A stretch of 56,815 nucleotides of DNA from a virus (taxonomy: Duplodnaviria; Caudoviricetes): positions 1 to 56,815 of IMG/VR virus record IMGVR_UViG_3300033141_001667. One strand, given 5' to 3'. A program made the position numbers and the translations under genes. The number at the start of each line of letters is the position of its first letter. The first letter of the stretch is position 1. The notes under the pieces were generated by a model. That model was not told the DNA's origin. It saw only the letters and a list, made by a program, of their open reading frames with translations, and ran no database searches. Shown piece after piece: positions 1,915 through 44,676 of the stretch.

Positions 1915-1936
1915 GCTAACCTCCTTCAGATAATCC

Positions 1937-2466: not shown

Positions 2467-2664
2467 TTACTTCTTGGCATAAAATGAACGATCCGTGAAC
2501 CTAGCTGCTAGCTTATTGGCGAATTGCTTTGCCTGTGATAACGTATCAAAGCAAGCAATCTCGCGCTCTGTGCCGTTGCGTGATTCAATCACAACGGCAC
2601 AAGCAATGCGAACTCCTTGCAAGTATTCTGGTTGGCTTCTGTCTCCAAACATATAATAAGGCAT
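2467..2664 (-). CDS. hypothetical protein
   Basis: 65 aa ORF with AAAGGGGG RBS in the leftward operon. Confidence 0.6.
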   Translation of the reverse strand: MPYYMFGDRSQPEYLQGVRIACAVVIESRNGTEREIACFDTLSQAKQFANKLAARFTDRSFYAKK

Positions 2665-2735
2665 TCTGTCACCCCCTTTTCGATCTCTGATTCCCCCCGG
2701 AGGACGTCAACCTCCAAGGAGGAAATTGGATACAC

Positions 2736-2843
2736 TCACTTGGCTTTCTTCTTCTTCTTCTTCTGGTATCCATCACAACGGGCACAATTGTCGTTGCTTC
2801 CACACACGTCCCAGTACTTACAGCTTCTCTTCGTGGTGTTCAT
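2736..2843 (-). CDS. 35 aa Cys-rich, Lys-tailed peptide (MNTTKRSCKYWDVCGSNDNCARCDGYQKKKKKKAK)
   Basis: GAGAGG RBS; four Cys; below the ORF-track size cutoff. Confidence 0.5.
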   Translation of the reverse strand: MNTTKRSCKYWDVCGSNDNCARCDGYQKKKKKKAK

Positions 2844-2917
2844 ACTTGACCTCTCTTGCTCTTAGATACTCTGCAAGCTCCTACACCACAGCTGCAGCAT
2901 AGGGGCTCAAGGTGGGG

Positions 2918-3097
2918 CTAAATGGTAGCCCGATATAGGCCAGGGCACCATATTGGGTCGGGTTGTATAGCTTTGTGATCTTCACACCATTGTTTGAACC
3001 GTTGTAACGTGGGCAGCTCTGAACATCCGATACACTTGTCCCCAAACTTGCCACAGTAATAACTGGTACAGCATGACGGGTAACGTCGTTCTTCCAT
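2918..3097 (-). CDS. 59 aa Cys-rich protein (MEERRYPSCCTSYYCGKFGDKCIGC...)
   Basis: GGAGGAGGG RBS; fills the operon gap; not in the ORF track. Confidence 0.65.
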   Translation of the reverse strand: MEERRYPSCCTSYYCGKFGDKCIGCSELPTLQRFKQWCEDHKAIQPDPIWCPGLYRATI

Positions 3098-3121
3098 TGT
3101 TCCCTCCTCCGAAAGGTAATG

Positions 3122-3634
3122 CTATTCTTTCTTAACGCCCAACTCCTGCCGGAACTCAGCACGAGTCATTGGTCGATTTGCTTTCTCGTACACTCCTTCA
3201 CGCTGTCTGAATGCCTGAAATCGTGGTTGTCCGTTACTTGCGTCGTGGTCATATGGTTCGCCGACCATGAACCCATCTCGCACCCATATTGCCGGGGGGA
3301 GTACATTCAAACCGTAGTCGTATTCCTCCTCGGTAGTCTCATCCCATGCGATGGGCGTATGCTGTCGCTCTGCAATCTGTTTGCATAACTCGTCAAGGGT
3401 CATGACTACGGCACCGGGATTCTCTTCAATGCATTCCGCGACAGTCTTCTCACCATATATCATTCGCCCGGTGAACGGGTGAACGATGTTGATAGCCTGA
3501 TTTTGGCCTGGTATGGCTACGCAGTGCGTGCAGTCGTTGATACTGATCTCGCGCTCCGCCTGGACTAGCTTCTCCACTTTCTTCGCTGTCTTGTCTGTCA
3601 TGCTTTCATCAGCTCCCTTCATAGTAGCCTGCAT
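3122..3634 (-). CDS. DUF1419-like protein
   Basis: WDETTEEEYDYGLNVLPP...FMVGEPYDH motif. Confidence 0.6.
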   Translation of the reverse strand: MQATMKGADESMTDKTAKKVEKLVQAEREISINDCTHCVAIPGQNQAINIVHPFTGRMIYGEKTVAECIEENPGAVVMTLDELCKQIAERQHTPIAWDETTEEEYDYGLNVLPPAIWVRDGFMVGEPYDHDASNGQPRFQAFRQREGVYEKANRPMTRAEFRQELGVKKE

Positions 3635-3635
3635 C

Positions 3636-4103
3636 CTACATCAACCCATTCGCCTTCATTGATAGGTGTTTGCCATTTGGCGCCAAGATAATGTGGTCCA
3701 GCACTCGGATTCCGAGAATCTCCCCAGCCTTTACAAGTCGTTTCGTCATTGCTATATCCTCCGGGCTTGCTTCCAGCCTACCAGAAGGATGATTATGCGC
3801 GAGGATGATTGCGGCCGCTCGGTCAACTATCACATCTGCAAACACTTCTCGCGGGTGAACTTGGTTACTATCCAGAAGCCCAAGAGTTACAATTCTTGCC
3901 GGACTATTTGGCTTGTTCGCACCATTGAGAGATAGGACCGCAAATGCTTCTTGCTTCAAGCTGCGGATTACCTCGAAGCACGAGAGCGTGTCTTCGGCGT
4001 CGCGGATAACCTTCTCGGTTGTCGGTGTGGGCTCTTTCACTTCACTGCACCATACGGCGCAACCGTTGACGAGCAGTTCAACCTTTGTGCTTGTCTCTTT
4101 CAT
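3636..4103 (-). CDS. radC: RadC-like JAB-domain protein
   Basis: VHPREVF...AAAIILAHNHPSG...SPED...LGIRVLDHII signature. Confidence 0.9.
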   Translation of the reverse strand: MKETSTKVELLVNGCAVWCSEVKEPTPTTEKVIRDAEDTLSCFEVIRSLKQEAFAVLSLNGANKPNSPARIVTLGLLDSNQVHPREVFADVIVDRAAAIILAHNHPSGRLEASPEDIAMTKRLVKAGEILGIRVLDHIILAPNGKHLSMKANGLM

Positions 4104-4513
4104 TATTCAGTCACTGCCCTGAACTCCGGCTCGTTAAACGCCTTGTCATTTTCTCCGAACATCAGATATCTGTTGTGCGCTGCTATTTCTGCCGTCGTCA
4201 TTCCTTCGTACAGAAAGCGTCCGTTCGCACAGTTTGACTTCACCTGATTGATAAGCGCTTCGATCTCAAGCCCTTTCATTTGTGCCCTTTCATATATCGT
4301 TTGCATTGTTGCCGCATACCGTATACGTGCATATCCATACGTTCCATCGCGCCGTTTGCTGGGGGATTGCACAAAACTAAACGCTACAAGTCCACCCGCT
4401 CGACAATGCCCCTTGCGATATGATAACGGCCCTCTAGCCTCATTTAATCCAAAGGCTGCTATTGCATCTGTAACGTGTAACTCTGCTTGCTCGCGCGTAT
4501 ACTTATATTGCAT
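4103..4513 (-). CDS. hypothetical phage protein
   Basis: 136 aa ORF, AGGAGG RBS, stop overlaps the radC start. Confidence 0.7.
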   Translation of the reverse strand: MQYKYTREQAELHVTDAIAAFGLNEARGPLSYRKGHCRAGGLVAFSFVQSPSKRRDGTYGYARIRYAATMQTIYERAQMKGLEIEALINQVKSNCANGRFLYEGMTTAEIAAHNRYLMFGENDKAFNEPEFRAVTE

Positions 4514-4536
4514 TGTTCCTCCTACTTTATTCTGGC

Positions 4537-4782
4537 TTATCCCCTCAGATCTTCAGCTTGTTCTAATAGTTTTACCCTTGTTTCGGCATCGTATACTTGA
4601 TCCATATACAGAGCCCAAATAAAATCATCTAGGTCATCTAGGGTTATAATAGGTTCGCCGTCTGCATTGAGGTCCGACACTTGCCCTCTGTTGTTTTCTT
4701 CGTAGACTGTATATAGTCGCCTGCTACCAGTGTCCCCATTTTCGTAATATGTCTCTGCTCCGTAGAATCTATGATCTTTCAT
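4537..4782 (-). CDS. small acidic protein
   Basis: 81 aa, D/E-rich, AAGGAGG RBS. Confidence 0.7.
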   Translation of the reverse strand: MKDHRFYGAETYYENGDTGSRRLYTVYEENNRGQVSDLNADGEPIITLDDLDDFIWALYMDQVYDAETRVKLLEQAEDLRG

Positions 4783-4803
4783 TTTAACCTCCTTTTAGAC
4801 GAG

Positions 4804-4941
4804 TTAGAACTCTTCGTCTAGCGCTATTTGTACTGCATCAATGCCTTGTGTAATTGCAGCACGCACTATCTCGCTCTCTAATGCTAGTGCCGGATCGATT
4901 GTTTTGCTTATACATATTGCGACAAATTCATTTTGTGTCAT
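4804..4941 (-). CDS. 45 aa protein (MTQNEFVAICISKTIDPALALESE...)
   Basis: ATGA-coupled to the upstream ORF; not in the ORF track. Confidence 0.6.
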   Translation of the reverse strand: MTQNEFVAICISKTIDPALALESEIVRAAITQGIDAVQIALDEEF

Positions 4942-5105
4942 GCCCTCACACCTTTGAGAGGGTATAGCCCGAATTCCTGCCCTTGTGCAACTACAATATA
5001 GCCATCTTCAAATGGGGCGTTACAGATGTACCATAAGCCACCCGATCGTACAGCCGCCCTTCTTGCTGCCCTCACTGCTTCTCCAATTGTTTTGTAGACT
5101 ATCAT
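4938..5105 (-). CDS. 55 aa protein, first gene of the leftward early operon
   Basis: GGAGGT RBS; preceded by a TTGTAT...TATAGT promoter-like sequence at ~5138-5166. Confidence 0.55.
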   Translation of the reverse strand: MIVYKTIGEAVRAARRAAVRSGGLWYICNAPFEDGYIVVAQGQEFGLYPLKGVRA

Positions 5106-5297
5106 TTTTGCCACCTACCTCCGATCTTTGATATCCTTACTATACACATCGACAAGCGCAATACAAGTGACAACAGTTACCAAACAACTGGGACACCCGG
5201 CACCAATACAACGGGACAGACGCAAGCTGATAACTAGCTAAAACAAGCTATAACTTGACAAAGATTGACTAAAAGCTGACAAAATATAGGAGAAATA

Positions 5298-5756
5298 ATG
5301 GCAACAAAGATCAATTGGACTGAAGCCGAGCGCGAGTATGTGCAGAGTAAACAACCTAAAACACTGAGCGAGATTGCTTCAATGTATAATGTATCGGAGA
5401 GGTCTTGTCACAGGCATTCGACCGAGGGAGAATGGGTTCGTAAGAGGCGGGAGTTTTGGAGTGCGGCAGCGGAGGCAACGAGACTTCTAGCAGTTAACCG
5501 TCAAGCAGAAGCTAATATAGATTCTTTAAAGATAGTAGAAACTATAACTTCTGATCTGTCTGCCATTGCCGATGAGATTGTAGTTGAACTAGCAACACGG
5601 GACCTCACTAACATACGCTCTGACGAGCTTATCAATATGCTGCCAAGAGTCTCAAACGCAGTGGACAAGGGTGTTAGGGCGATTTCATTCTTGAAAGGTG
5701 GACCGGATTCTCGCCAAGAACGCAGTTTTGCAGATCTCGCAAACAAGGCTAGATAA
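5298..5756 (+). CDS. terS: terminase small subunit (putative)
   Basis: N-terminal HTH (TLSEIASMYNVSERSCHRHSTEGEWVRKRRE) followed by a helical region; first rightward gene. Confidence 0.65.
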   Translation: MATKINWTEAEREYVQSKQPKTLSEIASMYNVSERSCHRHSTEGEWVRKRREFWSAAAEATRLLAVNRQAEANIDSLKIVETITSDLSAIADEIVVELATRDLTNIRSDELINMLPRVSNAVDKGVRAISFLKGGPDSRQERSFADLANKAR

Positions 5757-5996
5757 GGCCAGATAACACATCAGAAAATGCCCTTTACTGATCCCGTGCA
5801 AGCACATTTTAATATAAGCAAGCCTACCCCAGGTAAAACAGGGAGCAAATCCGCCGTGAGTGAGCGCCCCCACAAATATCACGACCTCTCCCAGGATTTT
5901 TCTATTAGAATTCCCTATATTCTCCTCTAGTATTCATCCCATCGTTATGTTATAATGAGAGCGCAATAGCAGTTATAGATGCAAAAAGGAGGAGCA

Positions 5997-6245
5997 ATGA
6001 GTATCGAAACTTCAGATCGTTACGCCGCTATGGGAATTCCTCATCCAGATCCGGAAACCATGTGTTTGGGTTTATGTGAAGGGACCGGATGGGTTCCTAT
6101 CAACGCAGACAAACCAAACGATGACGTTGGCCCGTGGCATGACTTGTGGCTTATGGCTGATGAAAGCGGACCAGCGGACGAACTAGGGTATCACTTCGTT
6201 CTATGCCCGACGTGCAATGGTACGGGACTGAGAGACTCACAATAG
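5997..6245 (+). CDS. DnaJ-type zinc-finger protein
   Basis: CLGLCEGTG ... CPTCNGTG motifs; AGGAGG RBS. Confidence 0.65.
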   Translation: MSIETSDRYAAMGIPHPDPETMCLGLCEGTGWVPINADKPNDDVGPWHDLWLMADESGPADELGYHFVLCPTCNGTGLRDSQ

Positions 6246-6356
6246 GGGTGATGGAGAGTTTGAGGTCACACTGACCATAAACGTCGCAAGATTGATCACA
6301 AGCGGCTATGGTTTCATCGACGGGCAAAGTAGAATGAACCCAAGGAGGATGACGGG

Positions 6357-6605
6357 ATGAGGGAGCCAGGATCACCGACACAGGAGCAGATGTTGCGATA
6401 CTTGGTGGCGCGAGGCCATACGCAAGTAGCAGCACACGGACGAGCGCCCTGGCTTAGCGCTTCCCGTGCCCTCGTGCGTCGAGGGCTTGCCAACTCTTGG
6501 AGAACTGGATGGTACGCACCAACTGAGGAGGGCAAGCAATGGGTGAAGGACAATCCAAGCTCGCAACATAAGGAGACTTTCGTTGCAAGTGAAGGAGTGA
6601 GATGA
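6357..6605 (+). CDS. hypothetical protein (possible winged helix)
   Basis: AGGAGG RBS; ALVRRGLA...YAPTEEG motif. Confidence 0.5.
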   Translation: MREPGSPTQEQMLRYLVARGHTQVAAHGRAPWLSASRALVRRGLANSWRTGWYAPTEEGKQWVKDNPSSQHKETFVASEGVR

Positions 6606-6802
6606 AGATAGCGAAAGAGATTGACCAGTTGCTTGCAACGAACGGATTGTATCCGGTAGATCGAATCGGAATAGCCGCGCCGTTAATCTCCGCGAAGCTG
6701 GAGCCGATAGTTGAAATACTAAAAGAGGCGCGTAACGCAGAAAGTGCCAGGGATATGTGGGAAGATGTTGGGTCTGCCCTCGCCCTATTCGAGGAGGAAT
6801 GA
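6602..6802 (+). CDS. hypothetical protein
   Basis: ATGA-coupled, AAGGAG RBS. Confidence 0.6.
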   Translation: MKIAKEIDQLLATNGLYPVDRIGIAAPLISAKLEPIVEILKEARNAESARDMWEDVGSALALFEEE

Positions 6803-7050
6803 TGAAGATAGAGAATTGCGAGTTCAACGCAGTGAAGTTTGATGGTCGAGCCATAGATGCGATCAACAACGTATCGAAGGCGTTATTGAATCTGACGGAA
6901 ATCTTCAAGATGCAGGACATCGAGATAGAATGTCTTGTCAAGATCGAAGGCGATGGCATAACCGTTCATGATTGCCACACGAATGGCACAGCAGCATTGA
7001 GGGGTGACAGCCATGAAACTACCCTGGAAGCGAACGAGAGGGGCTGCTGA
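6799..7050 (+). CDS. hypothetical protein
   Basis: GAGGAGG RBS, coupled to the previous gene (MMKIENCEFNAV...). Confidence 0.55.
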   Translation: MMKIENCEFNAVKFDGRAIDAINNVSKALLNLTEIFKMQDIEIECLVKIEGDGITVHDCHTNGTAALRGDSHETTLEANERGC

Positions 7051-7227
7051 TCCATCTGAAGAGGTAAACAGGACAGATGTATCCAAACGCTTAAAATACC
7101 ATCTGACAGCATGTGACAAGTGCCATCGAGTGGCGTGGGCATAAACCGAAGCCGGATGAGTTGATGGAGAGATTCCTGATATGCAGATTGGGCTATCGCG
7201 AGTTTTCAGAAGCAATCGAAAGGAGAT

Positions 7228-7434
7228 ATGATGCGCCCCAAAGTACTCAAAACTGAAGCTGATTACGAGGCGGCACTTGCTCGGCTCGACGAATTGCTTG
7301 ATGCTGAGCCTGAAACTCCAGAAGGCGATGAATTTGAGCTTTGGGCGACACTCATCGAAACATACGAGGAGTCCGAGTTCCCCATTGACTTGCCTGATCC
7401 GCAAGCTTCATGTGGAGCTAAGCTGCATAAATAA
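7228..7434 (+). CDS. truncated HigA-family antitoxin (N-terminal domain only, no HTH)
   Basis: KVLKTEADYEAALARLDELLDAEPETPEGDEFELWATLIETYE..FPIDLPDP then an abrupt end; AAGGAG RBS. Confidence 0.75.
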   Translation: MMRPKVLKTEADYEAALARLDELLDAEPETPEGDEFELWATLIETYEESEFPIDLPDPQASCGAKLHK

Positions 7435-7443
7435 GGGGGAATA

Positions 7444-7887
7444 ATGGGAAAGAACTATTTTGGCCCTAATGGACAGATCCAAGAAAGCGTAAAAGACTGT
7501 CTGGGAACAACAATTTTGGGTATTTATGGAGAATATAATAAGGCACTGGACTATAATAGTTACAGAATAGTTATTGAGACCGATTGTGGTTATCTGGTCA
7601 TTACAGGCTCTCATGATCATGGCCCTGAATATGAGTATAGCCGCAAGAAAAAGAGTCATTATATCCTAAGAAATGCGGAAGATAATATCTGTGATAATTT
7701 TCGGACTGAAATCTTCACGCCCAAATCAAATAAAGACATATTGGAGGGATTTTGCAAGGCAGTCGAGAAGGCCAAAGAGGTCGAGAAAAGCTTGCGGGAT
7801 ATTTACGAGAAGTGCACCACGCTGATATCCACGTGCTCCGGGAACTTAACATACACGGTAAATCTGAAGAAGACGGAGAATGTGTGA
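7444..7887 (+). CDS. hypothetical protein
   Basis: 147 aa ORF with AGGGGG RBS. Confidence 0.65.
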   Translation: MGKNYFGPNGQIQESVKDCLGTTILGIYGEYNKALDYNSYRIVIETDCGYLVITGSHDHGPEYEYSRKKKSHYILRNAEDNICDNFRTEIFTPKSNKDILEGFCKAVEKAKEVEKSLRDIYEKCTTLISTCSGNLTYTVNLKKTENV

Positions 7888-8165
7888 TCCATAGGAAGAA
7901 CGTGCGAACAAATACATTACAAGAACCTACATTCTTCTTAGAATAATTTGTCTAATATTGATGAGATTATCTTATCTAGTTTTTAAGGGGAAATCGGGGA
8001 AGATTCTGTCGATTGTGCTGGCCAGTTGCTAGCGATTTGACATCGCAGACATAATGTCGGTAGTTGCGCCTATATGCCAACAAAACGTACCGTGCGAGGA
8101 ATTGATGATACATAATCTCGGCATCTGGGCCTATTAGCCGAGAACAAGTATCAAAGGAGATCACC

Positions 8166-8333
8166 ATGCCCGACACCGAGAAGTTGCTCAAGGAGATCGG
8201 CGAGGGTGGCATATTCCGGACGAGCAAGCTGGGGATGCTGGGGATTAGTCGTTCGACGGTTAAATGACTGGTCGAACGGGGTGAGGCCGAACAGATATCT
8301 CACGGCCTCTATCGACTCGTTAAAGGAGAATAA
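8166..8333 (+). pseudogene. AbiEi (type IV antitoxin) N-terminal wHTH fragment with in-frame TGA at 8265-8267
   Basis: AAGGAG+ATG: MPDTEKLLKEIGEGGIFRTSKLGMLGISRSTVK*LVERGEAEQISHGLYRLVKGE. Confidence 0.65.
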
Positions 8334-8336
8334 TCT

Positions 8337-8690
8337 GTGTCTCAAACTGACGATAGAATCTTTGATCCTATAGACATTAGTGAGAATCTATTATGCCTAC
8401 TAGATGGCCAAGGATTTGATGCTCCGGTTAAATTTATGGTTCATGCCAGACCTCATGACGATCTAGATAAAGAAATTCCTCTTACCGATTGCGCGAAAAT
8501 CGTTAACTTTGATGAAGGGCCTGCAATATTTGTTCTGGATGAGTGTTCATTAATTGGGCTTCTTGGTCCCATGCTTGAGTATGATGGCATTCACCATATT
8601 TATCTATTCTTTTCCGGCAATAAGACTGATAATGACGGCAACAAGAAGAAAGTTCCGTTTGTAATGGGCAGGATTAACGCAAATCTATGA
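8337..8690 (+). CDS. hypothetical protein
   Basis: 117 aa ORF, GTG start with AAGGAG RBS. Confidence 0.6.
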   Translation: MSQTDDRIFDPIDISENLLCLLDGQGFDAPVKFMVHARPHDDLDKEIPLTDCAKIVNFDEGPAIFVLDECSLIGLLGPMLEYDGIHHIYLFFSGNKTDNDGNKKKVPFVMGRINANL

Positions 8691-8699
8691 GGGGATATT

Positions 8700-9326
8700 A
8701 TGTATGAAGGGAAGTCTATGTATTTACTTGAGGGGAATATAGCTGCTGGCAAATCAACAATAGGCAAAATTCTCAGAGACGAATTTGGATATGGCTTTAT
8801 TGAAGAACCGGTAGGCGCTTGGCAAAAAGATTTTGATGAGAATCTATTAGATTTGTTCTACAGCAATATGCCGCGCTGGGCTTTTACGTTCCAATTTGCA
8901 GCATTCACTACTAGGGCAAAGACATGGACTGAAGTATTAGCTATGACAGATCACGATAAAGTCATCCTGGAACGCTCTATTTTTTGTGATCGCTATGTTT
9001 TCGCAAAAAATTGCTATGAATCCGGTCTCATGAAGAAAACGGAATGGCAACTCTATTGTAAAATGTGGGATTGGCTCCAAAGTAATTGGTGTGCAGAGCC
9101 CGATAAGATCATTTATCTTCGTGTTCCGGCCCAAATCTGTCGTCTTAGAATTGAGCAGAGAGGGCGCGATGAAGAGAATGATATTCAGTTCGAATATTTG
9201 CGCGATTTAGAAATATTACATGATGAATGGCTACTTGATAATCCAAAATGCATGTTAATAAATGCAACCGGCACTACTCCCGAAATAATTGCACAAGAAG
9301 TGGCTAAGGCCATAAGGAACGAATAA
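8700..9326 (+). CDS. deoxynucleoside kinase (dNK family)
   Basis: LEGNIAAGKST P-loop, EEPV, ERS, RGRDEE motifs. Confidence 0.92.
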   Translation: MYEGKSMYLLEGNIAAGKSTIGKILRDEFGYGFIEEPVGAWQKDFDENLLDLFYSNMPRWAFTFQFAAFTTRAKTWTEVLAMTDHDKVILERSIFCDRYVFAKNCYESGLMKKTEWQLYCKMWDWLQSNWCAEPDKIIYLRVPAQICRLRIEQRGRDEENDIQFEYLRDLEILHDEWLLDNPKCMLINATGTTPEIIAQEVAKAIRNE

Positions 9327-9347
9327 ATAGAAAAGGAATCTACCCCA

Positions 9348-9656
9348 ATGACAGAACCAACATACGCAGATGGATTAGTAGAAGGCCGTCTAGTTACACT
9401 CGAAGCAGCCTCAGGCAAATACGAAGAAGAGATACATGGTCTTCGGAGTGATATAACTGGGATGGGCGAATCGCTTAGAAAAGAGATGAGACATTACCTA
9501 GAGCCGATTTATAATCAACTTATGGGTAATGGGCAGCCAGGATTGATTAAGCGGTTTGAGAATATAGCCACAACCGTCAAACTAAATTGGGGAGTAACAC
9601 TGCTTATGTTGGCTGCAATTATCGGTTTGGCATTAAGAGCATTCACCATCATCTAG
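9348..9656 (+). CDS. coiled-coil protein with a C-terminal TM helix (XhlA/holin-like)
   Basis: GNGQPGL motif, hydrophobic C-terminus GVTLLMLAAIIGLALRAF. Confidence 0.6.
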   Translation: MTEPTYADGLVEGRLVTLEAASGKYEEEIHGLRSDITGMGESLRKEMRHYLEPIYNQLMGNGQPGLIKRFENIATTVKLNWGVTLLMLAAIIGLALRAFTII

Positions 9657-9659
9657 TTC

Positions 9660-9688
9660 TTGACTTTCCTCTTACTATGTGCTATAAT
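9660..9688 (+). promoter_or_regulatory. sigma70 promoter TTGACT-N17-TATAAT upstream of the ncRNA/tmRNA region
   Basis: Near-consensus -35 and -10 with extended TG. Confidence 0.75.
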
Positions 9689-9904
9689 AATAATTGGATG
9701 ATTGCGATGTGTATACAATACGAATAGTCGCGGTAAGGATTGGAAATAAATCAGCTGGGCTTCTGCCACAAGTTGTGGCATATTTTTAGGGAGTCTTCTG
9801 GTGAGGTTAATCTGCATAGTAACTAAGAGTGTTTAAAATAAAACCCCGGTGGGAAGCGAATGGCTGGCCAGCCGCGCCTTATTAAACACTGATCATTGAT
9901 ATTT

Positions 9905-10259
9905 GGGGGCAATGGGTATCGATTGGGTACCGGAAGCATAATTGCAAGCGTAGTGCCAACTACTAAACTGGCAACTAAAACGAACTGACACGATCAGATC
10001 ATTCTTCAGCAATCTGAAGGCTAAGGCTACAAGTTTCGTTGATGGGCTTCTCCTTGGCAACGATACATCAACAATTGCTTTACTGGCCACCGCTTAGCGG
10101 AAGTGCCGCGAATAGGCTTTTCTGATTGGGCCGATCAATCAGATGGTGGACGAGACGAAGTCAGTCTCCCCAAAAGCAGCCATGCTTAAATGGACAAGCT
10201 TGTAGATATTGTGTGAAAGGTGCAACAAGACGGGCGTTCAACTCGCCCTGCCTCCACCA
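9905..10259 (+). ncRNA. ssrA: tmRNA (355 nt)
   Basis: Acceptor stem GGGGGCA/TGCCTCC with G3.U70 and encoded ACCA; GAC-GGGCG-TTCAACT-CGCCC T-arm; helix 2 TGCAAGC/GCTTGTA; pseudoknot GTAG/CTAC + TGCCA/TGGCA; tag ORF 9987-10097 ending ALLATA. Confidence 0.93.
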
Positions 10260-10314
10260 GAATATAGTGGGAACTATGGAAAAGTGATGAATAGTGGGAA
10301 GCCAAATCCCTTTT

Positions 10315-10346
10315 AGCTGGACCCAGCAACCATTTTGTAGTATAAT
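10315..10346 (+). promoter_or_regulatory. conserved phage promoter, copy 2, upstream of the terminase-large operon
   Basis: agcTGGACCcagcaaccattttgtagTATAAT. Confidence 0.7.
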
Positions 10347-10376
10347 TAAGCCTACACTCATACATTAGGAGGGGGG

Positions 10377-10541
10377 ATGTCTAACTCTGAAGAAATTATT
10401 ACAGACTACACACCGATTCCAGGCTTCACAAAAGGTAAGGGGCTTTATTGCCTTAAAGTCCCGTGGCTTGTGAGAAAAGGCGCTGCGGGAGAGGCCGACA
10501 GAATACTCAATGAATCAAGTGATAACGAAGCTGACTCCTGA
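10377..10541 (+). CDS. 54 aa hypothetical protein overlapping the terL start
   Basis: AGGAGGGGGG RBS; MSNSEEIITDYTPIPGFTKG... Confidence 0.5.
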   Translation: MSNSEEIITDYTPIPGFTKGKGLYCLKVPWLVRKGAAGEADRILNESSDNEADS

Positions 10542-12024
10542 AGAACGCGATCATCAAGCGTTTATTGCTGCCGACTATAAAAACAACCCAATGAATTTTA
10601 TCAAAAATATTCTTGGGTGCGAGTTGTGGTGGCGACAAGAAGAGATTGTAAAAAGTGTATGGAAGTATAAGCACACATATGTTCATTCGGCTAACTCTAT
10701 AGGTAAAACATATCTGGCTGGTAGACTAGCTCTTGCTTTTTACATGTGTCATATTGGCCCCAATAAAGAAGATGAAACCAAAGTAATTATTGTTGGGGCT
10801 AAATTTGATTCTTTACGATTGCAAACATGGGCTGAGCTAGGTTCTGCATATTACAAAGCGGCCTACCCCCTCGGCGGAAAATTACAAGCAAGAATCTACC
10901 ACGACTCTCCAGATAAACCAGAATCGTACATAGGTATTTTCGGCACAGACAAGGATAGCCCAGAGAATATCCAGGGTTTTCATGCTCCGAATATGCTCAT
11001 CATTGTCGAGGAAGCAAGCAAGCTCGATAGTGAAATAATGAAAGCCCTTGAAGGTTGTGCTGTTGCGGACAATAATCACATTTTGTGTATTGGAAACCCC
11101 ATCAGAACTGAGGGTATTTTCTTCGATAGATGTACGGACCCTAAAAATGAATATCTCAAAGAGGCCGGAATTAGGAACGTCATCGGCATTTCTGCTCTAG
11201 AAGCTCCAAATGTTGTATCTGGGCAAGACATATATCCGGGAATGCCTAATAGGGATTGGGTAGAGCAGCAAAAAGAAGAGTATGGAGAAGAAAGCCCATT
11301 CTATCAGGCCCGCGTATTAGGGCAGTTCCCATCTCAGGGTGAAGATCAGATTATCCCACTTGATTTAATCTATGATGCCTGTACTGATGAGCGACTTGAA
11401 CGCACTAGAATAGATACAGAAAATCGTGTTATGGCTCTCGATATTGCCAGACAAGGTGAAGATAAGTCTGCTATTGTTGGCATGTCCGGTGATTATGTAG
11501 AAGTACTGCATATGCGCAGGATAACCGATACGACAGTTACGAGAGATTGGTTCAAGCAAGAATTGTCCGATTTTAAAGGCGCGATACCCGGCATTGATGA
11601 AAATGGTCTCGGTGGTGGACCATATGACGAACTTAGGAAAGAGCGCATACCAGTTCGTGGCTGGATCTCTCAGCGGAAACCAGTTGACCAAGAGCGATTT
11701 TCGGATTTGAAATCAGAGACATTATGGAGTTTAAGAAAGAGATTTGAAGACGGTCTTATTGCAATACCGGAGAGCGAGTATAAAGATAAGCTGATAAGAG
11801 ATCTCGCTGGATATAGATATGGATTCGACAATAAAGGAAAACTTAAAAGCATAGATCCACATAAATCACCTGATCTTGGAGATGCGTTACTAATAGATCA
11901 CTGGTTACAGACGGCTGGAAAGCTGGGCTTAAAAATTGAATGTGGTAGCGCACCATCAGAAGATCGGGTTAATCTAGGCAGCATTGATAGAATATCAGTA
12001 GATATAGCGAATAGGGAGTTCTAG
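10510..12024 (+). CDS. terL: terminase large subunit
   Basis: WWRQEEI, HSANSIGKT (Walker A), IIVEEAS (Walker B), IGNP, ARVLGQFP, ALDIARQGEDKS and SPDLGDA nuclease motifs. Confidence 0.95.
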   Translation: MNQVITKLTPEERDHQAFIAADYKNNPMNFIKNILGCELWWRQEEIVKSVWKYKHTYVHSANSIGKTYLAGRLALAFYMCHIGPNKEDETKVIIVGAKFDSLRLQTWAELGSAYYKAAYPLGGKLQARIYHDSPDKPESYIGIFGTDKDSPENIQGFHAPNMLIIVEEASKLDSEIMKALEGCAVADNNHILCIGNPIRTEGIFFDRCTDPKNEYLKEAGIRNVIGISALEAPNVVSGQDIYPGMPNRDWVEQQKEEYGEESPFYQARVLGQFPSQGEDQIIPLDLIYDACTDERLERTRIDTENRVMALDIARQGEDKSAIVGMSGDYVEVLHMRRITDTTVTRDWFKQELSDFKGAIPGIDENGLGGGPYDELRKERIPVRGWISQRKPVDQERFSDLKSETLWSLRKRFEDGLIAIPESEYKDKLIRDLAGYRYGFDNKGKLKSIDPHKSPDLGDALLIDHWLQTAGKLGLKIECGSAPSEDRVNLGSIDRISVDIANREF

Positions 12025-12026
12025 TT

Positions 12027-14210
12027 ATGGTAGAAGATAAAAAACTGCTTCTAGCAGGAGAGACAGGTCTTGAGGGAACAGAAATTTCTTCTGGTATTAT
12101 TCGGGAGCCATATATTTCTTCTACTATCCTTGGAGAAGACTATCTAGAAGACTGGACAATAGATACAGTGAATCATATGCTGTGTGGAGATGGGCAAGTA
12201 TCTGGTGTGTGGAAAGCTATTATGCTGGCTCTTCTACAGGGCAATTGGTCTATAGAACCATATGTGGAGAGAGGGAAAGAGAAACCTACTACTAAGAACA
12301 AAAAGATTGCAGAAGACATTGGTAATCAGTTAGCAGATATATGGAAACCCACTCTAAATGAAGCCGTTTACTATTTGCCGTATGGGTTTTCTATTTTTGA
12401 AGTTACAATGCGAGAACAAGGCGGGAAAATTATATGGGATCGCATTGCGCCCAGGCTACAACATACCATCAATAAGTGGGAATCAGAGAAGGGACACGTA
12501 GCCAGTGTCAATCAATATGTCTGGGATGATAAGCTAGGGATGTACCGCAATGACATCTGGATTCCTGGCAGGCGCATTCTGCGTTTTACGAACGATCAAC
12601 GCGGAGCAAATTTTGAGGGCCAGAGTTTTATGCGGGGCGCATATAAACATTTCCTTATCAATAATGCCCTGTATAAAATTAGTGCGATTTATTGGGAGAA
12701 GCACGGTATTGGCACAATTGTTGCCGCATCCCCTCCTGGAGCCAATGAGGATCAAGAGAAAGCACTGAAAGAAATCCTTCCTGGTTTAAGGGCAAACGAA
12801 CATGGCTATGTTTATCTCGGCCCCGTAGCCGGAGAAGTCAAACTCGAAGATATGCTTACGGTTATGGTTCCAAAAGGCGGCAGCGAGGGAATGGACGGTT
12901 TGCTTAAGTTCATTGTACACAACGATACTCTAATAGCCAGATCTATGCTTGCCCAATTTATGAGTCTTGGGGAGCAGGGCGCTGGAACGCGCTCTCTCAG
13001 TGCAGATATGAATGATCTGTTTCTAATGAATCTTGAGGCCATTACTGGTTACATAAGTCATATTATCTCTAATGGAAATTATGGAGAAAATAGGGGAATC
13101 AAAGATCTTGTTGATATCAATTATGGTGAAGTAGACGGATATCCTAGATGGGTTTGTGGCAGAACGAAGAAAACTGATAGCTCAGCAATCGGTGCCGTAA
13201 TCGCTCAGCTCGTCCAATCGGGCGCAATGCGACCCGATGATTCGTTAGAAGATTTTCTACGCGGCATTCTCGGCGCTCCAAAAGATCTTATTAACCCCCG
13301 GCAAGCAAGCATAGCTACAAGGACAACCCAAAAGAATAATGTTGATTCAATAGACACGCCAGAGAATAGCGAGATGTCGGAACTCAAGAAATTTGAAGAA
13401 GGTATAATCCCGGCACCATTAAGGCGCGGCCGATTTCCATGGGAAGCGAATATAAGATTCGAGGAAATTAGAGATCGGTTAGATAGTCAAGAGGATCGCA
13501 TTGTTTCTAAATGGCGGGATATCTTCATTCAACAGATTGATGCAATTGGCGAAACAGTTGGTTCTATTGTCTCTCGAAAAGATTTAGAAAAAATTTACTC
13601 CGCAGAAGTGCCACTACAAGACGAGCTTGCTGAATATATCGCTTTAACACTACAATCAGTTCACTCTAGCGGACGTAGCGATGTAAAGAATGAGATGTTA
13701 GCACAGATTGCCGTACCATTATTCCAAGAGGACGAAGAGAAAGATGACGAAGAAATCTTGCCATTGTTTGTTCTCCAGGGAAGAAAAGCAGCCGAACGGT
13801 TAGCATCTAAGACTAAACAGGCGATAGAAGCTGCGGCAATTGCCGCTCTAGTGGCTGCAGAAGAAGCGTTATGGGAAGATATTCGAGAAAGAGCGATGCT
13901 TCTATCCGATCAATATGCGCGAGATGAGAGCAAATTCGTCAATTCGGCATATGGAATGGGCAGGAATGAAGTTATTGCAGCCGCTATCGCTGCTGGATTG
14001 GTTGAGGAGAGATACTATTCAGCAATGTTTGACGCTTGTGAGGTTTGCGCTGCAATGGACGGGGTAAAATATTCGGAGAGGCCCTTCGTTATACCAAATC
14101 CCGCGTGTTTAGGAGCGATTTACTCTAAAGCTGGCGGCAACCCATGTAGGTGTTTAGTCATCGTTATTCTTGAGGTTGGCGTGTTGTCTAATCAGATTCA
14201 GGCTCTTTAA
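12027..14210 (+). CDS. portal protein (DUF935/Mu gp29-like) fused to a C-terminal MuF/gp7-like head morphogenesis domain
   Basis: Follows terL; PYGFSIFEV, NFEGQSFMRGAY, IARSMLAQFMSLG; C-terminal YYSAMFDACEVCAAMDG...NPCRC. Confidence 0.88.
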   Translation: MVEDKKLLLAGETGLEGTEISSGIIREPYISSTILGEDYLEDWTIDTVNHMLCGDGQVSGVWKAIMLALLQGNWSIEPYVERGKEKPTTKNKKIAEDIGNQLADIWKPTLNEAVYYLPYGFSIFEVTMREQGGKIIWDRIAPRLQHTINKWESEKGHVASVNQYVWDDKLGMYRNDIWIPGRRILRFTNDQRGANFEGQSFMRGAYKHFLINNALYKISAIYWEKHGIGTIVAASPPGANEDQEKALKEILPGLRANEHGYVYLGPVAGEVKLEDMLTVMVPKGGSEGMDGLLKFIVHNDTLIARSMLAQFMSLGEQGAGTRSLSADMNDLFLMNLEAITGYISHIISNGNYGENRGIKDLVDINYGEVDGYPRWVCGRTKKTDSSAIGAVIAQLVQSGAMRPDDSLEDFLRGILGAPKDLINPRQASIATRTTQKNNVDSIDTPENSEMSELKKFEEGIIPAPLRRGRFPWEANIRFEEIRDRLDSQEDRIVSKWRDIFIQQIDAIGETVGSIVSRKDLEKIYSAEVPLQDELAEYIALTLQSVHSSGRSDVKNEMLAQIAVPLFQEDEEKDDEEILPLFVLQGRKAAERLASKTKQAIEAAAIAALVAAEEALWEDIRERAMLLSDQYARDESKFVNSAYGMGRNEVIAAAIAAGLVEERYYSAMFDACEVCAAMDGVKYSERPFVIPNPACLGAIYSKAGGNPCRCLVIVILEVGVLSNQIQAL

Positions 14211-14217
14211 TATTCTT

Positions 14218-14643
14218 TCAATCCTCCTTAGGCAGCAGAGCAATGGCCTTTTCTCTTGATGCCTTCGCATCTGCATACATCTTGCGGATTCTGTTGCTAC
14301 TTGGTGCATAGATTGCCGCGTTTGCTAGGTACCCCTTCACCTCTGCATCCTCACACCAATCCCAGATCAGACGCAACGCCTCATCCTTCTTCGCGATGTG
14401 CTGCTCTAGGGCATCGATGTGCTTTGTTTGTGTTGCGATTACCTCGTCAAATCCATAATCTTCTGGACAGCAAGCAGCTTCGCGTTCTTCCCAATCACTC
14501 AACTCCGCTTCCAGGGAAAATAGTCTGTCCCATGTTGTCTCCATTCTGCGCCCATCTGTCAGAACGAACGTCACGTCGCCTGATAAATCCTCGCCATTCG
14601 CAATAACTACTACGCCGTTGTCTAGCTCATTCGTGTGACTCAT
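14218..14643 (-). CDS. hypothetical protein in a reverse-oriented insert
   Basis: GGGAGG RBS before MSHTNELD; WEEREAACCPEDYGFDE motif. Confidence 0.65.
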   Translation of the reverse strand: MSHTNELDNGVVVIANGEDLSGDVTFVLTDGRRMETTWDRLFSLEAELSDWEEREAACCPEDYGFDEVIATQTKHIDALEQHIAKKDEALRLIWDWCEDAEVKGYLANAAIYAPSSNRIRKMYADAKASREKAIALLPKED

Positions 14644-14657
14644 CGTTCCTCCCTTTC

Positions 14658-14897
14658 TCAAGCCCGCTCACTCGCCGCTCTAGGTGCGGCCCAATCGAAT
14701 TGATCATCATCCCACCTAATCGTTCTCTTGTTGACAATCAACTCTTGACCGCACAGGCATCGAAAACGTATGGTTCGTTTCCCAGGACCCGAACCAACAT
14801 ATTCAGTGTGACAAGATGGACAAACATATGATGGATAGGATTCTATGACCTCATGATCAACAATGTCAACGCGCTTCGGTCGTTTAGTAACACTCAT
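14658..14897 (-). CDS. zinc-ribbon protein
   Basis: CPSC...CLCG; AGGAGG RBS. Confidence 0.7.
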   Translation of the reverse strand: MSVTKRPKRVDIVDHEVIESYPSYVCPSCHTEYVGSGPGKRTIRFRCLCGQELIVNKRTIRWDDDQFDWAAPRAASERA

Positions 14898-15065
14898 CTC
14901 GCCCTCCTAGTCGTTGTACCTCTCTGATGCCAGCGATATTTGTTGCTTCTCGCACGGCGTCGGCCCTATCTGCGGCGATTCAGCGTAGTGTGTCACTCCC
15001 GAAACAAGACCGTCGCCTTGGAACAGATTGTAGCACTTTTATAGCCACCTCATTATTTGGTCATT

Positions 15066-15094
15066 AGTATAACAAATGCCACAGTAAAAGTCAA
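15066..15094 (-). promoter_or_regulatory. promoter TTGACT-N17-TATACT
   Basis: Twin of 15276-15304 and 47263-47291 (TTGACTTTT...TATACT). Confidence 0.7.
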
Positions 15095-15104
15095 CACTTA
15101 TATG

Positions 15105-15254
15105 CTATCGATTATCTAGCGTGTAGCCCACCCAACCGGCAATTGCCCCCACGAGAAAACTAATTGGTATTCCAACAAATCCAAGGCGCCATCCGAGGAT
15201 TCCGCCGATAACCATTACTGTTCCGAGACAGATAATTGTATATTTCCCGATCAT
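15105..15254 (-). CDS. 49 aa two-TM membrane protein with its own promoter
   Basis: GGGAGG RBS; MIGKYTIICLGTVMVIGGILGWRLGFVGIPISFLVGAIAGWVGYTLDNR; not in the ORF track. Confidence 0.65.
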   Translation of the reverse strand: MIGKYTIICLGTVMVIGGILGWRLGFVGIPISFLVGAIAGWVGYTLDNR

Positions 15255-15275
15255 TGTTCCTCCCTTTTAGCCATT

Positions 15276-15304
15276 AGTATAGCAAAAACAACAACAAAAG
15301 TCAA
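15276..15304 (-). promoter_or_regulatory. promoter TTGACT-N17-TATACT
   Basis: Directly upstream of the RBS of 15105..15254. Confidence 0.7.
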
Positions 15305-15320
15305 GCATTAGGAGTGCTAT

Positions 15321-16712
15321 ATGCCCTGGAGCGCAGATTCATATCCGAATTCATTTAAATCTTTGACTGTAAAGCAGAGAAATAAGGCTATTTCAATAGC
15401 TAATAATATATTAAAATCATGTATCGCTAAAGGTGGGAAAAGTGAATCAGAATGTGCTGGCATCGCAATAGCCACTGCGTTGTCTAAAGTAAAGGAGAGT
15501 TCTATGGCAGAAGAAAATAAAGGCAGCAACACTCTCTTAGCCGAAGTCACAAGGCTAAGTGAAATCGTCAAAAATTTCAATGACGGTGTGCGCGGGGTCA
15601 AAGTGGCTATAGATATTGCCCATGAACCTGATCGCGGGGCTGTCGCATGGATTGAAGGACTTGAGCTTGGCCCATCGTCTACACAACCCGGTAAACAAGC
15701 CCTATGGGCTATGGTTAAATGGAATAAAACCGGAATAAATCTCATTGCAAATGAAGTTTACAAATATATTTCCTCCGAATTTGGTGATGATGTTAATGGC
15801 GAGAACGGCAAAGTGACTAAGAACGTTCTAATTGCCGCTACATTAACCAACAGACCATTTGTTAAGGGAATGACCGCTGTTGAACTCGATGAAGACGGCA
15901 ATCCCCCATCTAGAATTGAAATTTTAAGAGAAGGAGATTATTTTCATCCTTCGTATGGAAAAATGGTAATCAAAGCAGAGGAAACACAATCATTAGTTCA
16001 TAAAATTGTTTCGGCGGTACTTAATGCCATGGGAAAAGAAACACTAGGAGCTGAAACGGTCAGCGCTATGGAGACCGATGAAGGCAACGAAGCAAATAAA
16101 TTAAGTGAGGTGGAAGAAATGGATCAGATTCGGGAACTGCTAGTAGAACTAGGAGTCAAGCTCGAAGAGGATACCGATGTGATGGAGGCTCTTAAAGCTC
16201 ACATTGCAACATTGAGCACTGCGGCTGAAGAGAGCGAGAAGAAGCTTGAAGAGGCTGGCGAGGAAGATAGCAAGGTCCTTGAAGAGAAATTAGCGACTGC
16301 TAAGAAGCTCGAAGAGGAGCAAGCGAAAGCCAAGAAGCTCGAAGAAGAAAAGAAGGCGCTTGAAGACGAGAAAGAAACACTCGCAGATCGCGTTGTTAAG
16401 TTAGAAGAGGTTAATCGGCTTGCAGAGCGCGATAGATTCCTAAGCCAGATGATTCGAGATGGCAAGCTGCGCCCAGCCGATAAAACGAAGTTTGAGGATC
16501 TATATGACAAAGCCCCCGACGAAGTTAAGAATTTACTTAGTGAGGGTGAAGTTGTAGTTGATCTTGGTAATGAAATCGGAAGCGATTCTGATAATTCAGC
16601 AGATGATGAGGACGATGCAGATCTGAAGGCCGCGAAGACTCTTGCGGCTAAAGATGGTATTGGACTTGCAGAAGCTTACACAAAAGTAATTGCGTTAGGG
16701 AAAGGTGAATAA
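15321..16712 (+). CDS. Mu-like I prohead protease/scaffold with a small N-terminal ChaB/DUF2188-associated-like domain
   Basis: AIDIAHE, LWAMVKWN, YKYISSEF, LTNRPFVKGM motifs; acidic coiled-coil scaffold tail; N-terminal MPWSADSYPNSFKSL..KAISIAN. Confidence 0.85.
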   Translation: MPWSADSYPNSFKSLTVKQRNKAISIANNILKSCIAKGGKSESECAGIAIATALSKVKESSMAEENKGSNTLLAEVTRLSEIVKNFNDGVRGVKVAIDIAHEPDRGAVAWIEGLELGPSSTQPGKQALWAMVKWNKTGINLIANEVYKYISSEFGDDVNGENGKVTKNVLIAATLTNRPFVKGMTAVELDEDGNPPSRIEILREGDYFHPSYGKMVIKAEETQSLVHKIVSAVLNAMGKETLGAETVSAMETDEGNEANKLSEVEEMDQIRELLVELGVKLEEDTDVMEALKAHIATLSTAAEESEKKLEEAGEEDSKVLEEKLATAKKLEEEQAKAKKLEEEKKALEDEKETLADRVVKLEEVNRLAERDRFLSQMIRDGKLRPADKTKFEDLYDKAPDEVKNLLSEGEVVVDLGNEIGSDSDNSADDEDDADLKAAKTLAAKDGIGLAEAYTKVIALGKGE

Positions 16713-16714
16713 CA

Positions 16715-17104
16715 ATGGCTGGATCTCTTGATCTACGAACAGTAAGCCGCGAAGCGGGCGAAGACTTGAGTTCTCATCAATATTGTTTTATGTATTCAGA
16801 TACTGATAGTCAACTCTTGCATGCCACAGGAGACACTTCTGATATTATTGGTATTTTGCAAGATGATCCTGATACCGCTGGCAAGGGAGCCTTGCTCGGT
16901 TATGGTGGGATCTCAAAATTGGTCGTTGACGGCAACGCAGGCGCGATTGCCGCTGGCGATAGACTGACTTCTGACTCAGAGGGTAAAGGCGTTGTTACAA
17001 CGACCGATACAAAAACTTATGGAGCAATTGCGCTTGAGGCCAGTACTGCGGCTGGAGATATTATTCAAGTTCTCATTACTCCTATGCAAATGATCGCAGG
17101 CTAA
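16715..17104 (+). CDS. capsid cement/decoration protein (DUF2190-like)
   Basis: EAGEDLS..Y, IGILQD, AIAAGDRLTSD..GK, AIALEA..AAGDII; lies between protease and capsid. Confidence 0.85.
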   Translation: MAGSLDLRTVSREAGEDLSSHQYCFMYSDTDSQLLHATGDTSDIIGILQDDPDTAGKGALLGYGGISKLVVDGNAGAIAAGDRLTSDSEGKGVVTTTDTKTYGAIALEASTAAGDIIQVLITPMQMIAG

Positions 17105-17120
17105 GGAAAGGTGATATAGA

Positions 17121-18050
17121 ATGCTCCCAACCCATAATGATGTTCATGTAGATGGATTGCTAACCAATCTAGTTATTGGTTATAAAAATCCAGACGCTAT
17201 CTACGACCAAATCCTCCCGATTGTTAATACTTTTGGCGTGGAATCAGGTAAATATGCTATCTTCGATCAAGATGACCAGTTCCGCGACACTGCTGCGGTT
17301 ATTCCGCCCGGTGGTAATTATCCAGTTGACGGGTATCGTATTTCGAGTGATACATGGTCTACTGAAGAGATCGGTCAAGCTACTGAGCTTCCTGACCGAA
17401 CTTATAATAACGCGACTGGTGCATTTAAGAAAGCACTCAAATTGACTAAGGCTCAATTCTGCGCTAAACGTGTTGAGCTAAAACGAGAGATTGATACTGC
17501 GTCTGTAGTGTTCGCAGATTCTTGGGGAACTAACGATACGACTGCTATTGATTGGTCAGATAAAACGAACAGTAACCCCATTCAAGACATTATCGACGCT
17601 GGCTATACTATTGAATCTGCTACTGGCATGACGCCAAATGTGCTTGTGCTGGGCAACCAAGTATGGAAGGAACTTCGCAATAACCCCACTATGCTGGACT
17701 TCTTGGGATCTAATGAGCGCGCGAGCGTGAAAATTTCTGATGCGCAAGACGCATTCGATCTTCCCAAGATTCTTGTTGGCAAAACAATTAAGAATACAGC
17801 GAATGAGGGCCAAACGGCGTCCTACAGTAACGTTTGGGGAGCTGATGCAGTTCTTCTTTACGTTGATGGTTCTCCAACTCCAGATCCCTACTCTGCTAGT
17901 GCGGGATACATATTCCAGTCCGAAGGCTTGAAAATCTGGACATGGCGACCAGCTGATAGGAAGACTACCTTCTATGCGGCTACGGTCATGCAGGATATGA
18001 AGGTCTGCGCGAGTAATCTTGGTTATAGATTTGAAACAATAGTTAGTTAG
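17121..18050 (+). CDS. major capsid protein
   Basis: VHVDGLLTNL..GYKN, WSD..SNPI.DI, G..PNVLVLG..VW..L..NP motifs; position in the head module. Confidence 0.9.
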   Translation: MLPTHNDVHVDGLLTNLVIGYKNPDAIYDQILPIVNTFGVESGKYAIFDQDDQFRDTAAVIPPGGNYPVDGYRISSDTWSTEEIGQATELPDRTYNNATGAFKKALKLTKAQFCAKRVELKREIDTASVVFADSWGTNDTTAIDWSDKTNSNPIQDIIDAGYTIESATGMTPNVLVLGNQVWKELRNNPTMLDFLGSNERASVKISDAQDAFDLPKILVGKTIKNTANEGQTASYSNVWGADAVLLYVDGSPTPDPYSASAGYIFQSEGLKIWTWRPADRKTTFYAATVMQDMKVCASNLGYRFETIVS

Positions 18051-44668: not shown

Positions 44669-44676
44669 TAGATGAG

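Follow-up and report, generated by a model that had tools for sequence, protein, structure and literature searches.

The 56,815-base stretch analysed here, referred to as the window, is a whole linear virus record of IMG/VR (CheckV completeness estimate 69%). It carries a 355-nt one-piece gene for a transfer-messenger RNA (tmRNA, ssrA) at positions 9905–10259 of the plus strand, the strand of all tmRNA features described below. The gene is real and lies on phage DNA. Taken together, the evidence is probably best explained by a phage-borne tmRNA that has remained intact in its tRNA-like domain, the long helix P2, pseudoknot 1 (PK1) and the sequence that sets the reading frame, and has strongly diverged elsewhere. 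A phage-encoded tmRNA with an unusually long tag had been proposed for this locus in a first-pass annotation. While the gene itself was borne out, phage-encoded tmRNAs are not new as such, as excerpts of PMC4131195 and PMC9004378 indicate.

Structure of the tmRNA gene

The Rfam tmRNA model RF00023 was matched by cmscan at exactly 9905–10259, from model position 1 to 374, with a score of 53 bits (gathering score 47) and an E-value of 4.8e-18. All elements of the tRNA-like domain named in the first-pass annotation, G3·U70 and an encoded CCA, are present, as is PK1. The 5' strand of the acceptor stem, GGGGGCA (9905–9911), forms seven out of seven pairs with TGCCTCC (10249–10255), which is followed by the encoded ACCA (10256–10259), and the pair G9907·U10253 corresponds to G3·U70. 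The D-loop analogue AUGGGUAUCGA (9912–9922) is aligned to GAucuGGaUUCGA of the model with posteriors from 9 up to the highest class ('*'), and the T arm GGGCG UUCAACU CGCCC (10232–10248) reaches this highest class with all five pairs formed. The two strands of P2 (9923–9949 and 10198–10228) pair with each other in the minimum free energy (MFE) fold. PK1 occupies 9950–9973, with stem 1 formed by 9950–9953 and 9960–9963 and stem 2 by 9954–9957 and 9970–9973. Its assignment is based on reading of the sequence and on its alignment with PK1 of the likely hosts, the Bipolaricaulota. Further downstream, a hairpin GCGG-AAGUG-CCGC (10097–10109) is supported by host alignments and by folding, and is followed by the region that forms PK2–PK4 in host tmRNAs (10110–10197). 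This region is diverged in the window (cmscan posteriors 1–4), and local hairpins are present in it by folding.

Unconstrained folding of the 355 nt recovered the acceptor stem, the T arm and the long P2. The MFE amounts to −117.6 kcal/mol (z −3.26), and none of 100 shuffled sequences folded as well.

Two results of the gene searches weigh against an intact tmRNA. The score of 53 bits is low compared with the 77–204 bits of 81 full-model matches in Bipolaricaulota, and ARAGORN called neither a tmRNA nor a tRNA anywhere in the window, so that the check by ARAGORN or Rfam suggested earlier came out positive for Rfam, above its cut-off, and negative for ARAGORN. The silence of ARAGORN counts only weakly, since the program also missed one of 48 full-length Bipolaricaulota tmRNAs and six of 52 tmRNAs rebuilt from viral contigs.

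Pair conservation was analysed with 48 Bipolaricaulota tmRNAs rebuilt in full (loci L047–L101, 348–374 nt), from which 64 pairs canonical in at least 80% of the sequences were mapped onto the window. In the window 38 of these pairs are canonical, of which 22 are identical, four differ on one side and 12 on both; a further 14 pairs are broken and 12 fall into gaps. The acceptor stem (P1), P2, PK1 stem 1 and the T arm together account for 25 canonical pairs out of 29 mapped, and hold 11 of the 12 double changes. Two pairs of the acceptor stem are changed on both sides relative to the Bipolaricaulota consensus, the T arm contains two compensatory pairs, and PK1 stem 1, with four out of four positions paired, contains one. 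In P2, five pairs are changed on both sides, six are identical and four appear broken in the register of the MAFFT alignment. The latter can be attributed to that register, as the stretch pairs one step over in the MFE fold. With the exception of these four, all broken or gapped pairs fall into the tag-terminal hairpin of the hosts and the PK2–PK4 stretch. Among 24 host pairs on or beside 10106–10171, three are canonical, seven broken and 12 gapped, and two have no counterpart base in the window; among 11 host pairs inside the tag frame (10038–10088), six are canonical and five broken. Outside P1, P2, PK1 stem 1 and the T arm, most host-consensus pairs are thus broken or gapped, which is a further point against the preferred explanation. 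According to excerpts of PMC2481249, the activity of tmRNA survives replacement of its pseudoknots.

The pattern of pairs appears to fit an RNA under selection for its tRNA-like domain, P2 and PK1, with the caveat that in a gene stemming from another phylum the double changes would be differences between lineages that did not arise in the phage. A relic would account for the pattern less well. Such a copy of ssrA would have been picked up through imprecise excision of an ancestor that integrates at ssrA, and only its tRNA-like end would matter, as attachment site or as decoy for SmpB, while the messenger part drifts and the long frame results by accident from a lost stop codon. The very low Rfam score and the degenerate PK2–PK4 region speak for such a copy. 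Set against this, P2 and PK1, which are needless for an attachment site or a decoy, have been kept, partly by compensatory changes, and so has the frame-setting AACU with an A at position −4. On balance, including the evidence from the tag frame and from relatives given below, a relic is considered rather unlikely.

Resume codon and tag frame

The frame-setting sequence GAACU (9982–9986), with A9983 at position −4, is aligned to (U/C)AACU of the hosts and is followed by a frame of 36 codons (9987–10094; translation DTIRSFFSNLKAKATSFVDGLLLGNDTSTIALLATA) that begins with the resume codon GAC, 13 nt past PK1, and ends at the first in-frame stop codon, TAG (10095–10097), located at the foot of the conserved hairpin. 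Retranslation reproduced this frame as it had been annotated. The resume codon, previously guessed from its position, is supported by homology: cmscan aligned GAC 9987–9989 to the resume codon GCa of the model, and in the MAFFT alignment GAACU and the adjoining GAC of the window line up with (U/C)AACU and GCG of the hosts, where ARAGORN places the start of the host tags. The A at −4 is described in excerpts of PMC2481249 as nearly invariant and as the most important nucleotide for frame choice.

The stop codon is situated inside the motif CTTAGCGG, which was common to both host tmRNAs of a first alignment and to two of the seven in a second one, with variants of it in the other five. The counterpart of the hairpin in the hosts, GCGG-GUAUA-CCGC, lies downstream of their tags. 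The position of the stop within this hairpin suggests that the phage frame takes the place of the short host tag, of the hairpin at its stop codon and of the beginning of the next pseudoknot region. Given an active RNA that resumes translation at the start indicated by homology, the long tail would be made, whether selected or not. According to excerpts of the review PMC8012679, known tags have 8–35 residues, which places the 36 encoded residues at or just above the top of this range. The tag ends in ALLATA.

When the region was shuffled 20000 times, a frame of 36 or more open codons from the same start arose 2901 times (14.5%). The best amphipathic moment over 18 residues (µH 0.41, IRSFFSNLKAKATSFVDG) was reached by 779 of 5000 shuffled tags (15.6%), so that the amphipathic periodicity ascribed to the tag is within chance, and an amphipathic helix was rejected as a signal. 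Both values speak against a selected long tag and are in line with a relic. The nearby HigA fragment mentioned in the first-pass annotation could not be found, as no family of the HigA/Xre type was matched among 50 open reading frames (ORFs) at E ≤ 0.001 or, with the threshold relaxed to E ≤ 0.5, among 15 ORFs around the tmRNA gene. The suggestion that the tag is a membrane- or protease-targeting helix and counters RNase toxins is conjecture; a function of the tag along these lines is unsupported, while the tag length itself is about three times that of the likely hosts.

A working tmRNA that resumes elsewhere and adds a tag of ordinary length is improbable. Two starts would be conceivable for it, the +1 frame from 9988 (TRSDHSSAI, nine residues), for which the adjacent adenines 9983 and 9984 also provide an A at −4, and GGC 10056 (GNDTSTIALLATA, 13 residues), from which the last 13 codons look canonical by eye, with an Ala-rich hydrophobic end. 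Homology, however, sets the resume codon at 9987, and the hosts also have AA at −4 and −3. Moreover, the +1 frame has the end SSAI, which resembles no host or viral tag compared here, and GGC 10056 is located 82 nt past PK1, after CUCCUU and without an A at −4. The resemblance of the last 13 residues to host tags was rejected as homology, because the best local score of 22 was equalled in 790 of 2000 shuffles.

Likely host and relatives

The best clue to the host is provided by two genes left of the tmRNA gene, which are probably host-derived auxiliary genes. The left neighbour encodes a deoxynucleoside kinase (dNK; 8700–9326, plus strand; Pfam dNK, 1.1e-51), whose protein is 61–73% identical to proteins of metagenome-assembled genomes labelled Bipolaricaulota; several near-identical matches from one assembly series are labelled 'uncultured Thermotogae', and Chloroflexota proteins come next with 44–60% identity. 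The dNK of a 2.2-kb ENA contig (P0002) is 85% identical. At the DNA level, 58 of 184 Bipolaricaulota genomes match positions 1–20000 of the window, with the matches falling mainly into dNK (up to 76%) and RadC. The identity of dNK and of RadC (3636–4103, minus strand) to genes in many Bipolaricaulota genomes is 67–76%. A host of Bipolaricaulota type, an uncultured phylum, is likely from these similarities, though the assignment is soft: the G+C content of the phage is 4–25 points below that of the candidate-host loci measured, which weighs against it. A 29-nt match of 97% identity in genome G091 was considered as a CRISPR spacer and dismissed, as it lies outside any repeat array.

A tmRNA above the Rfam cut-off is found in 88 of 101 sampled Bipolaricaulota genomes. 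Chromosomal tmRNAs of this phylum (e.g. L048, L069 and L071) display the same architecture and a similar length as the gene in the window (348–374 nt against 355 nt). Common to both are G3·U70, the encoded CCA, the T arm, P2, a nearly identical PK1 sequence, AACU in front of the resume codon, the hairpin CUUAGCGG...CCGC and, ahead of the 3' strand of P2, AAGCUUGUAGA. Differences concern acceptor pairs 6 and 7, which are swapped (CA/UG in the window, UG/CA in the hosts), the PK2–PK4 region, which is unalignable, the location of the gene on phage DNA and, above all, the tag. ARAGORN reported a tag for 47 of the 48 host tmRNAs, and 44 were kept after removal of L062, L084 and L094, in which the tag was placed far from position 90. 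The comparison with the host tag proposed in the first-pass annotation showed none of the 44 to be long, all having 9–16 residues (e.g. ADYATVPAYALN and ANNYAFAAPSLN) of a sequence unrelated to the 36 codons of the window, which end in ATA.

The Bipolaricaulota tags are themselves odd, with ends such as ...PSLN, ...YALN and ...AYN in place of the usual Ala-Ala, 41 out of 44 ending in Asn; the usual ...AFAA or ...AYA is followed by two to four extra residues. Four further loci (L102–L105, from genomes G035, G008, G042 and G075) are full-model matches by Rfam with 87–137 bits, which start with ACTGGATTCGAC or similar and end with GGGTTCGATCA. They were left out of all alignments and counts, as the extracted ends are not the tmRNA ends.

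Mean identities to the window are highest for the Bipolaricaulota. Over the alignable 5' 95 nt and 3' 72 nt they amount to 0.466 and 0.585 for the 48 Bipolaricaulota tmRNAs, to 0.387 and 0.519 for an outgroup panel from other phyla, small with its eight tmRNAs, and to 0.396 and 0.550 for the 52 viral-contig tmRNAs. Bipolaricaulota account for all of the ten best 5' matches. Global pairwise identity with lenient gap costs was discarded, as it did not discriminate between the groups. By blastn against the 184 Bipolaricaulota genomes only the 3' 64 nt of the tmRNA were matched, in a single genome and with 75% identity, which weakens the link to this phylum.

Relatives of the gene itself were not found in any collection searched, a finding that stands against the preferred explanation. 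The tmRNA region gave no match by blastn against 50,697 phage records, its exact 3' 28-mer and 5' 18-mer were not found in IMG/VR, and two loci with the acceptor/T-loop motif in IMG/VR turned out to be a tRNA array and a sequence without RNA match. In 185,579 species genomes the 3' 24-mer had no match, and neither ARAGORN nor Rfam recognised a tmRNA at any of the ten matches of the 5' 18-mer. The antisense ORF, whose protein was searched as a stand-in for contigs of relatives, led to no relative either. The tmRNA of the window is a new, so far orphan lineage. That its 3' end has no exact match in the species genomes tells against a relic. The lack of a true match for its 5' 18-mer and 3' 24-mer in these genomes is also consistent with a gene borne by the phage.

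For relatives of the phage, the large terminase (TerL), portal and dNK were searched in IMG/VR. Terminases 65–67% identical to that of the window were found at four loci (L003, L015, L016 and L017). The closest relative with upstream sequence (L015, TerL 65%) lacks a tmRNA 3' end within the 165 nt leading up to the small ORF that precedes the terminase gene, which shows that the tmRNA is not a constant of the phage lineage and counts against the preferred explanation. A TerL alignment searched against metagenomes gave 12 loci, in which no tmRNA reached E ≤ 0.1, and searched against genomes it gave no relatives. In a more distant relative from IMG/VR (L014, portal 46% identical), a 72-nt tmRNA 3' end (255–326) is found just upstream of the terminase, at the spot which the tmRNA gene occupies in the window. 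Its last 32 nt agree within one mismatch with ten of the 48 Bipolaricaulota ends, with none of the eight outgroup ends and with none of the 52 viral tmRNAs, and have no exact match in the species genomes. The fragment is probably an attP for integration into ssrA. Its likeness to an attachment site suggests that a capture at this spot gave rise to the gene of the window; capture of ssrA by phages through imprecise excision is proposed in excerpts of PMC9004378. The same observations argue for a relic, since the nearest relative with upstream sequence lacks the gene, the more distant one has only a 3' fragment at the site, and both imprecise excision and an SmpB-titrating RNA reduced to the tRNA-like domain (TLD), discussed below, have been put forward for phages.

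Known phage tmRNAs provide further parallels. Excerpts of PMC4131195 report them for eight mycobacteriophages (among them Bxz1, Cali and Catera), for Bacillus phage G and, as a TLD-only form, for DS6A, while excerpts of PMC9004378 count them in 402 of 18,146 phage genomes and describe a two-piece ssrA in the Methylophilales phage Melnitz; huge phages carrying tmRNAs appear in excerpts of PMC7162821. As in these cases, the window combines a complete ssrA with a phage that has no SmpB of its own (some huge phages do carry SmpB), and in the published accounts, as far as excerpted, the genes are likely host-acquired, with keeping translation going and tagging as proposed roles. In contrast to them, it belongs to a mid-size tailed phage with a likely host in an uncultured phylum, and its tmRNA region has no DNA match to cultured phages.

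Long tags are also found in other virus-borne tmRNAs. A motif scan of IMG/VR yielded 58 loci, 52 rebuilt tmRNAs and 46 ARAGORN tags of 9–32 residues, in a motif-biased sample which may include proviruses with host flanks. The longest have 32, 31, 27 and 27 residues (L141, L175, L159 and L179), and two further tmRNAs missed by ARAGORN (L156 and L153) have 38 and 33 codons by eye. The tag of the window is unlike all six. Among the papers listed by full-text search, judged from titles and the beginnings of abstracts, none was on long tags in phage tmRNAs.

Genomic context and proposed role

The tmRNA gene is placed between the dNK gene on its left and the terminase and portal genes on its right. 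It is followed by a small ORF (10377–10541, plus strand), the likely TerL (10510–12024, plus strand; phrog_5902), which begins the terminase genes 250 nt past the tmRNA gene, and directly thereafter the portal (12027–14210; phrog_113). Protease, scaffold, major head protein, tail genes and a tape measure of 2119 residues complete this side, and genes for Sak4-like, exonuclease, replication-initiator and methyltransferase proteins lie past 45 kb. The left 9.9 kb consist of small ORFs mostly without family, with the exception of RadC, dNK and a few PHROG families of unknown function. Phage genes for head, tail, recombination and replication are thus found on both sides of the tmRNA gene, with no host genes between. 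The G+C content of the left flank, 0.455, is close to the 0.44 of the overall phage, compared with 0.48–0.69 for candidate-host loci. Based on gene style, G+C content and the few PHROG hits, the gene is read as phage-borne and not as a host ssrA beside a prophage. As noted in the first-pass annotation, SmpB is not visible: a six-frame search of the 56.8-kb record gave no match to PF01668. A Pfam scan of 50 ORFs (E ≤ 0.001) gave no integrase in this record, which is only about 69% complete; to that extent, the result tells against a relic.

Directly upstream of the tmRNA no promoter-like site is present, which counts against the preferred explanation. The closest one is a near-consensus site at 9660–9688 on the plus strand (TTGACT-17-TATAAT with TG, 11 out of 12 positions), and a terminator-like hairpin with a T run follows about 75 nt after it (region 9660–9790). 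The pair may give rise to a short transcript just upstream of the tmRNA.

A second ssrA-like element is located 34 kb downstream in the same orientation, at 44677–44747 of the plus strand. It is the second of two tandem tRNA-like elements (44603–44747, plus strand) between lysis-side genes and the Sak4/exonuclease genes. A gene for a GroES/Cpn10-like co-chaperonin of 91 residues (43894–44169, minus strand; Pfam Cpn10, 4.5e-07; phrog_3188, 3.2e-09) adjoins them. The second element consists essentially of an acceptor stem and a T arm, in the manner of a TLD-only RNA. Its acceptor stem, GGAGGCA/UGCCUCC, is nearly the same as that of the tmRNA. It has A3–U70 in place of G3·U70, so that the element is probably not charged with alanine, and the end of the element is AACA instead of ACCA. 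RF00023 scores 29.1 bits, the best of its clan but under the cut-off, and ordinary tRNAs reach 22–45 bits on the tmRNA model; ARAGORN found no tRNA at 44677–44747.

A homologous pair is found in the Bipolaricaulota genome G160 (locus L183, about 1380–1600), 74% identical over 97 nt and situated between an acetyltransferase-like gene and an IS1595 transposase. The acceptor stem of its second element, GGGGGCA/UGCCUCC with G3·U70, is that of the tmRNA in the window. Reading the G160 locus as a permuted cyanobacterial tmRNA (15 bits, E 0.34) was set aside, as the two acceptor strands do not pair.

In another explanation, the tmRNA gene would belong to the chromosome of an unsampled bacterium as its ssrA and would have entered the virus record through a prophage at its 3' end. 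Excerpts of PMC9004378 state that prophages often integrate at ssrA, and the short distance to the terminase genes would fit this explanation, and so would the second element, equally oriented and 34 kb away, with its nearly identical 3' acceptor strand. The left 9.9 kb, however, with their small, mostly unannotated ORFs, few phage-family matches and phage-like G+C content, speak against it, recombination and replication genes lie past the second element, and no integrase is found beside either of the two. Furthermore, the two elements share only TGCCTCCA and no longer identical core, and the second one is not a displaced 3' fragment, because it folds with a 5' acceptor strand of its own. A chromosomal origin of the DNA around the tmRNA gene is consequently regarded as very improbable.

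Three readings of the second element are conceivable: a TLD-only decoy, an attachment site and a degenerate tRNA. A decoy would be comparable to the TLD-only tmRNA of mycobacteriophage DS6A, which may titrate SmpB according to excerpts of PMC4131195; the likeness, drawn by description only, consists in a phage-borne RNA with little beyond acceptor stem and T arm. It is tempting to combine both RNAs into a takeover of trans-translation, in which the 36-codon tag, unrelated to the Asn-ending tag of the host, lets rescued chains escape host proteolysis or redirects it to the phage's choosing, while the TLD-only RNA competes with the host tmRNA for SmpB, but such a scheme is considered improbable.

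In the preferred explanation, that of an intact phage-borne tmRNA, a host ssrA of Bipolaricaulota type would have been captured at the site in front of the terminase genes. The short tag of the ancestor would then have been replaced, along with its stop codon and the following hairpin, with the frame running into the next conserved hairpin. In the infected cell the RNA would be made, its 5' end cut by RNase P, and the host alanyl-tRNA synthetase would charge it with alanine through G3·U70. Host SmpB and EF-Tu would deliver it to stalled ribosomes, where translation would resume at GAC 9987 and proceed over 36 codons to TAG 10095, so that rescued chains receive the tail A-DTIRSFFSNLKAKATSFVDGLLLGNDTSTIALLATA. 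The benefit for the phage would most likely be extra or host-independent ribosome-rescue capacity, with a tag unlike that of the host.

As a single instance, the gene is by itself a modest addition. It adds a lineage, probably of Bipolaricaulota phages, to the virus-borne tmRNAs with tags far above host length. If the RNA is active, every protein rescued by it in infected cells would carry a tail of 37 residues unlike that of the host, and would offer a direct handle on what phages use tmRNA for, namely whether it only frees ribosomes or also decides the fate of the truncated products.

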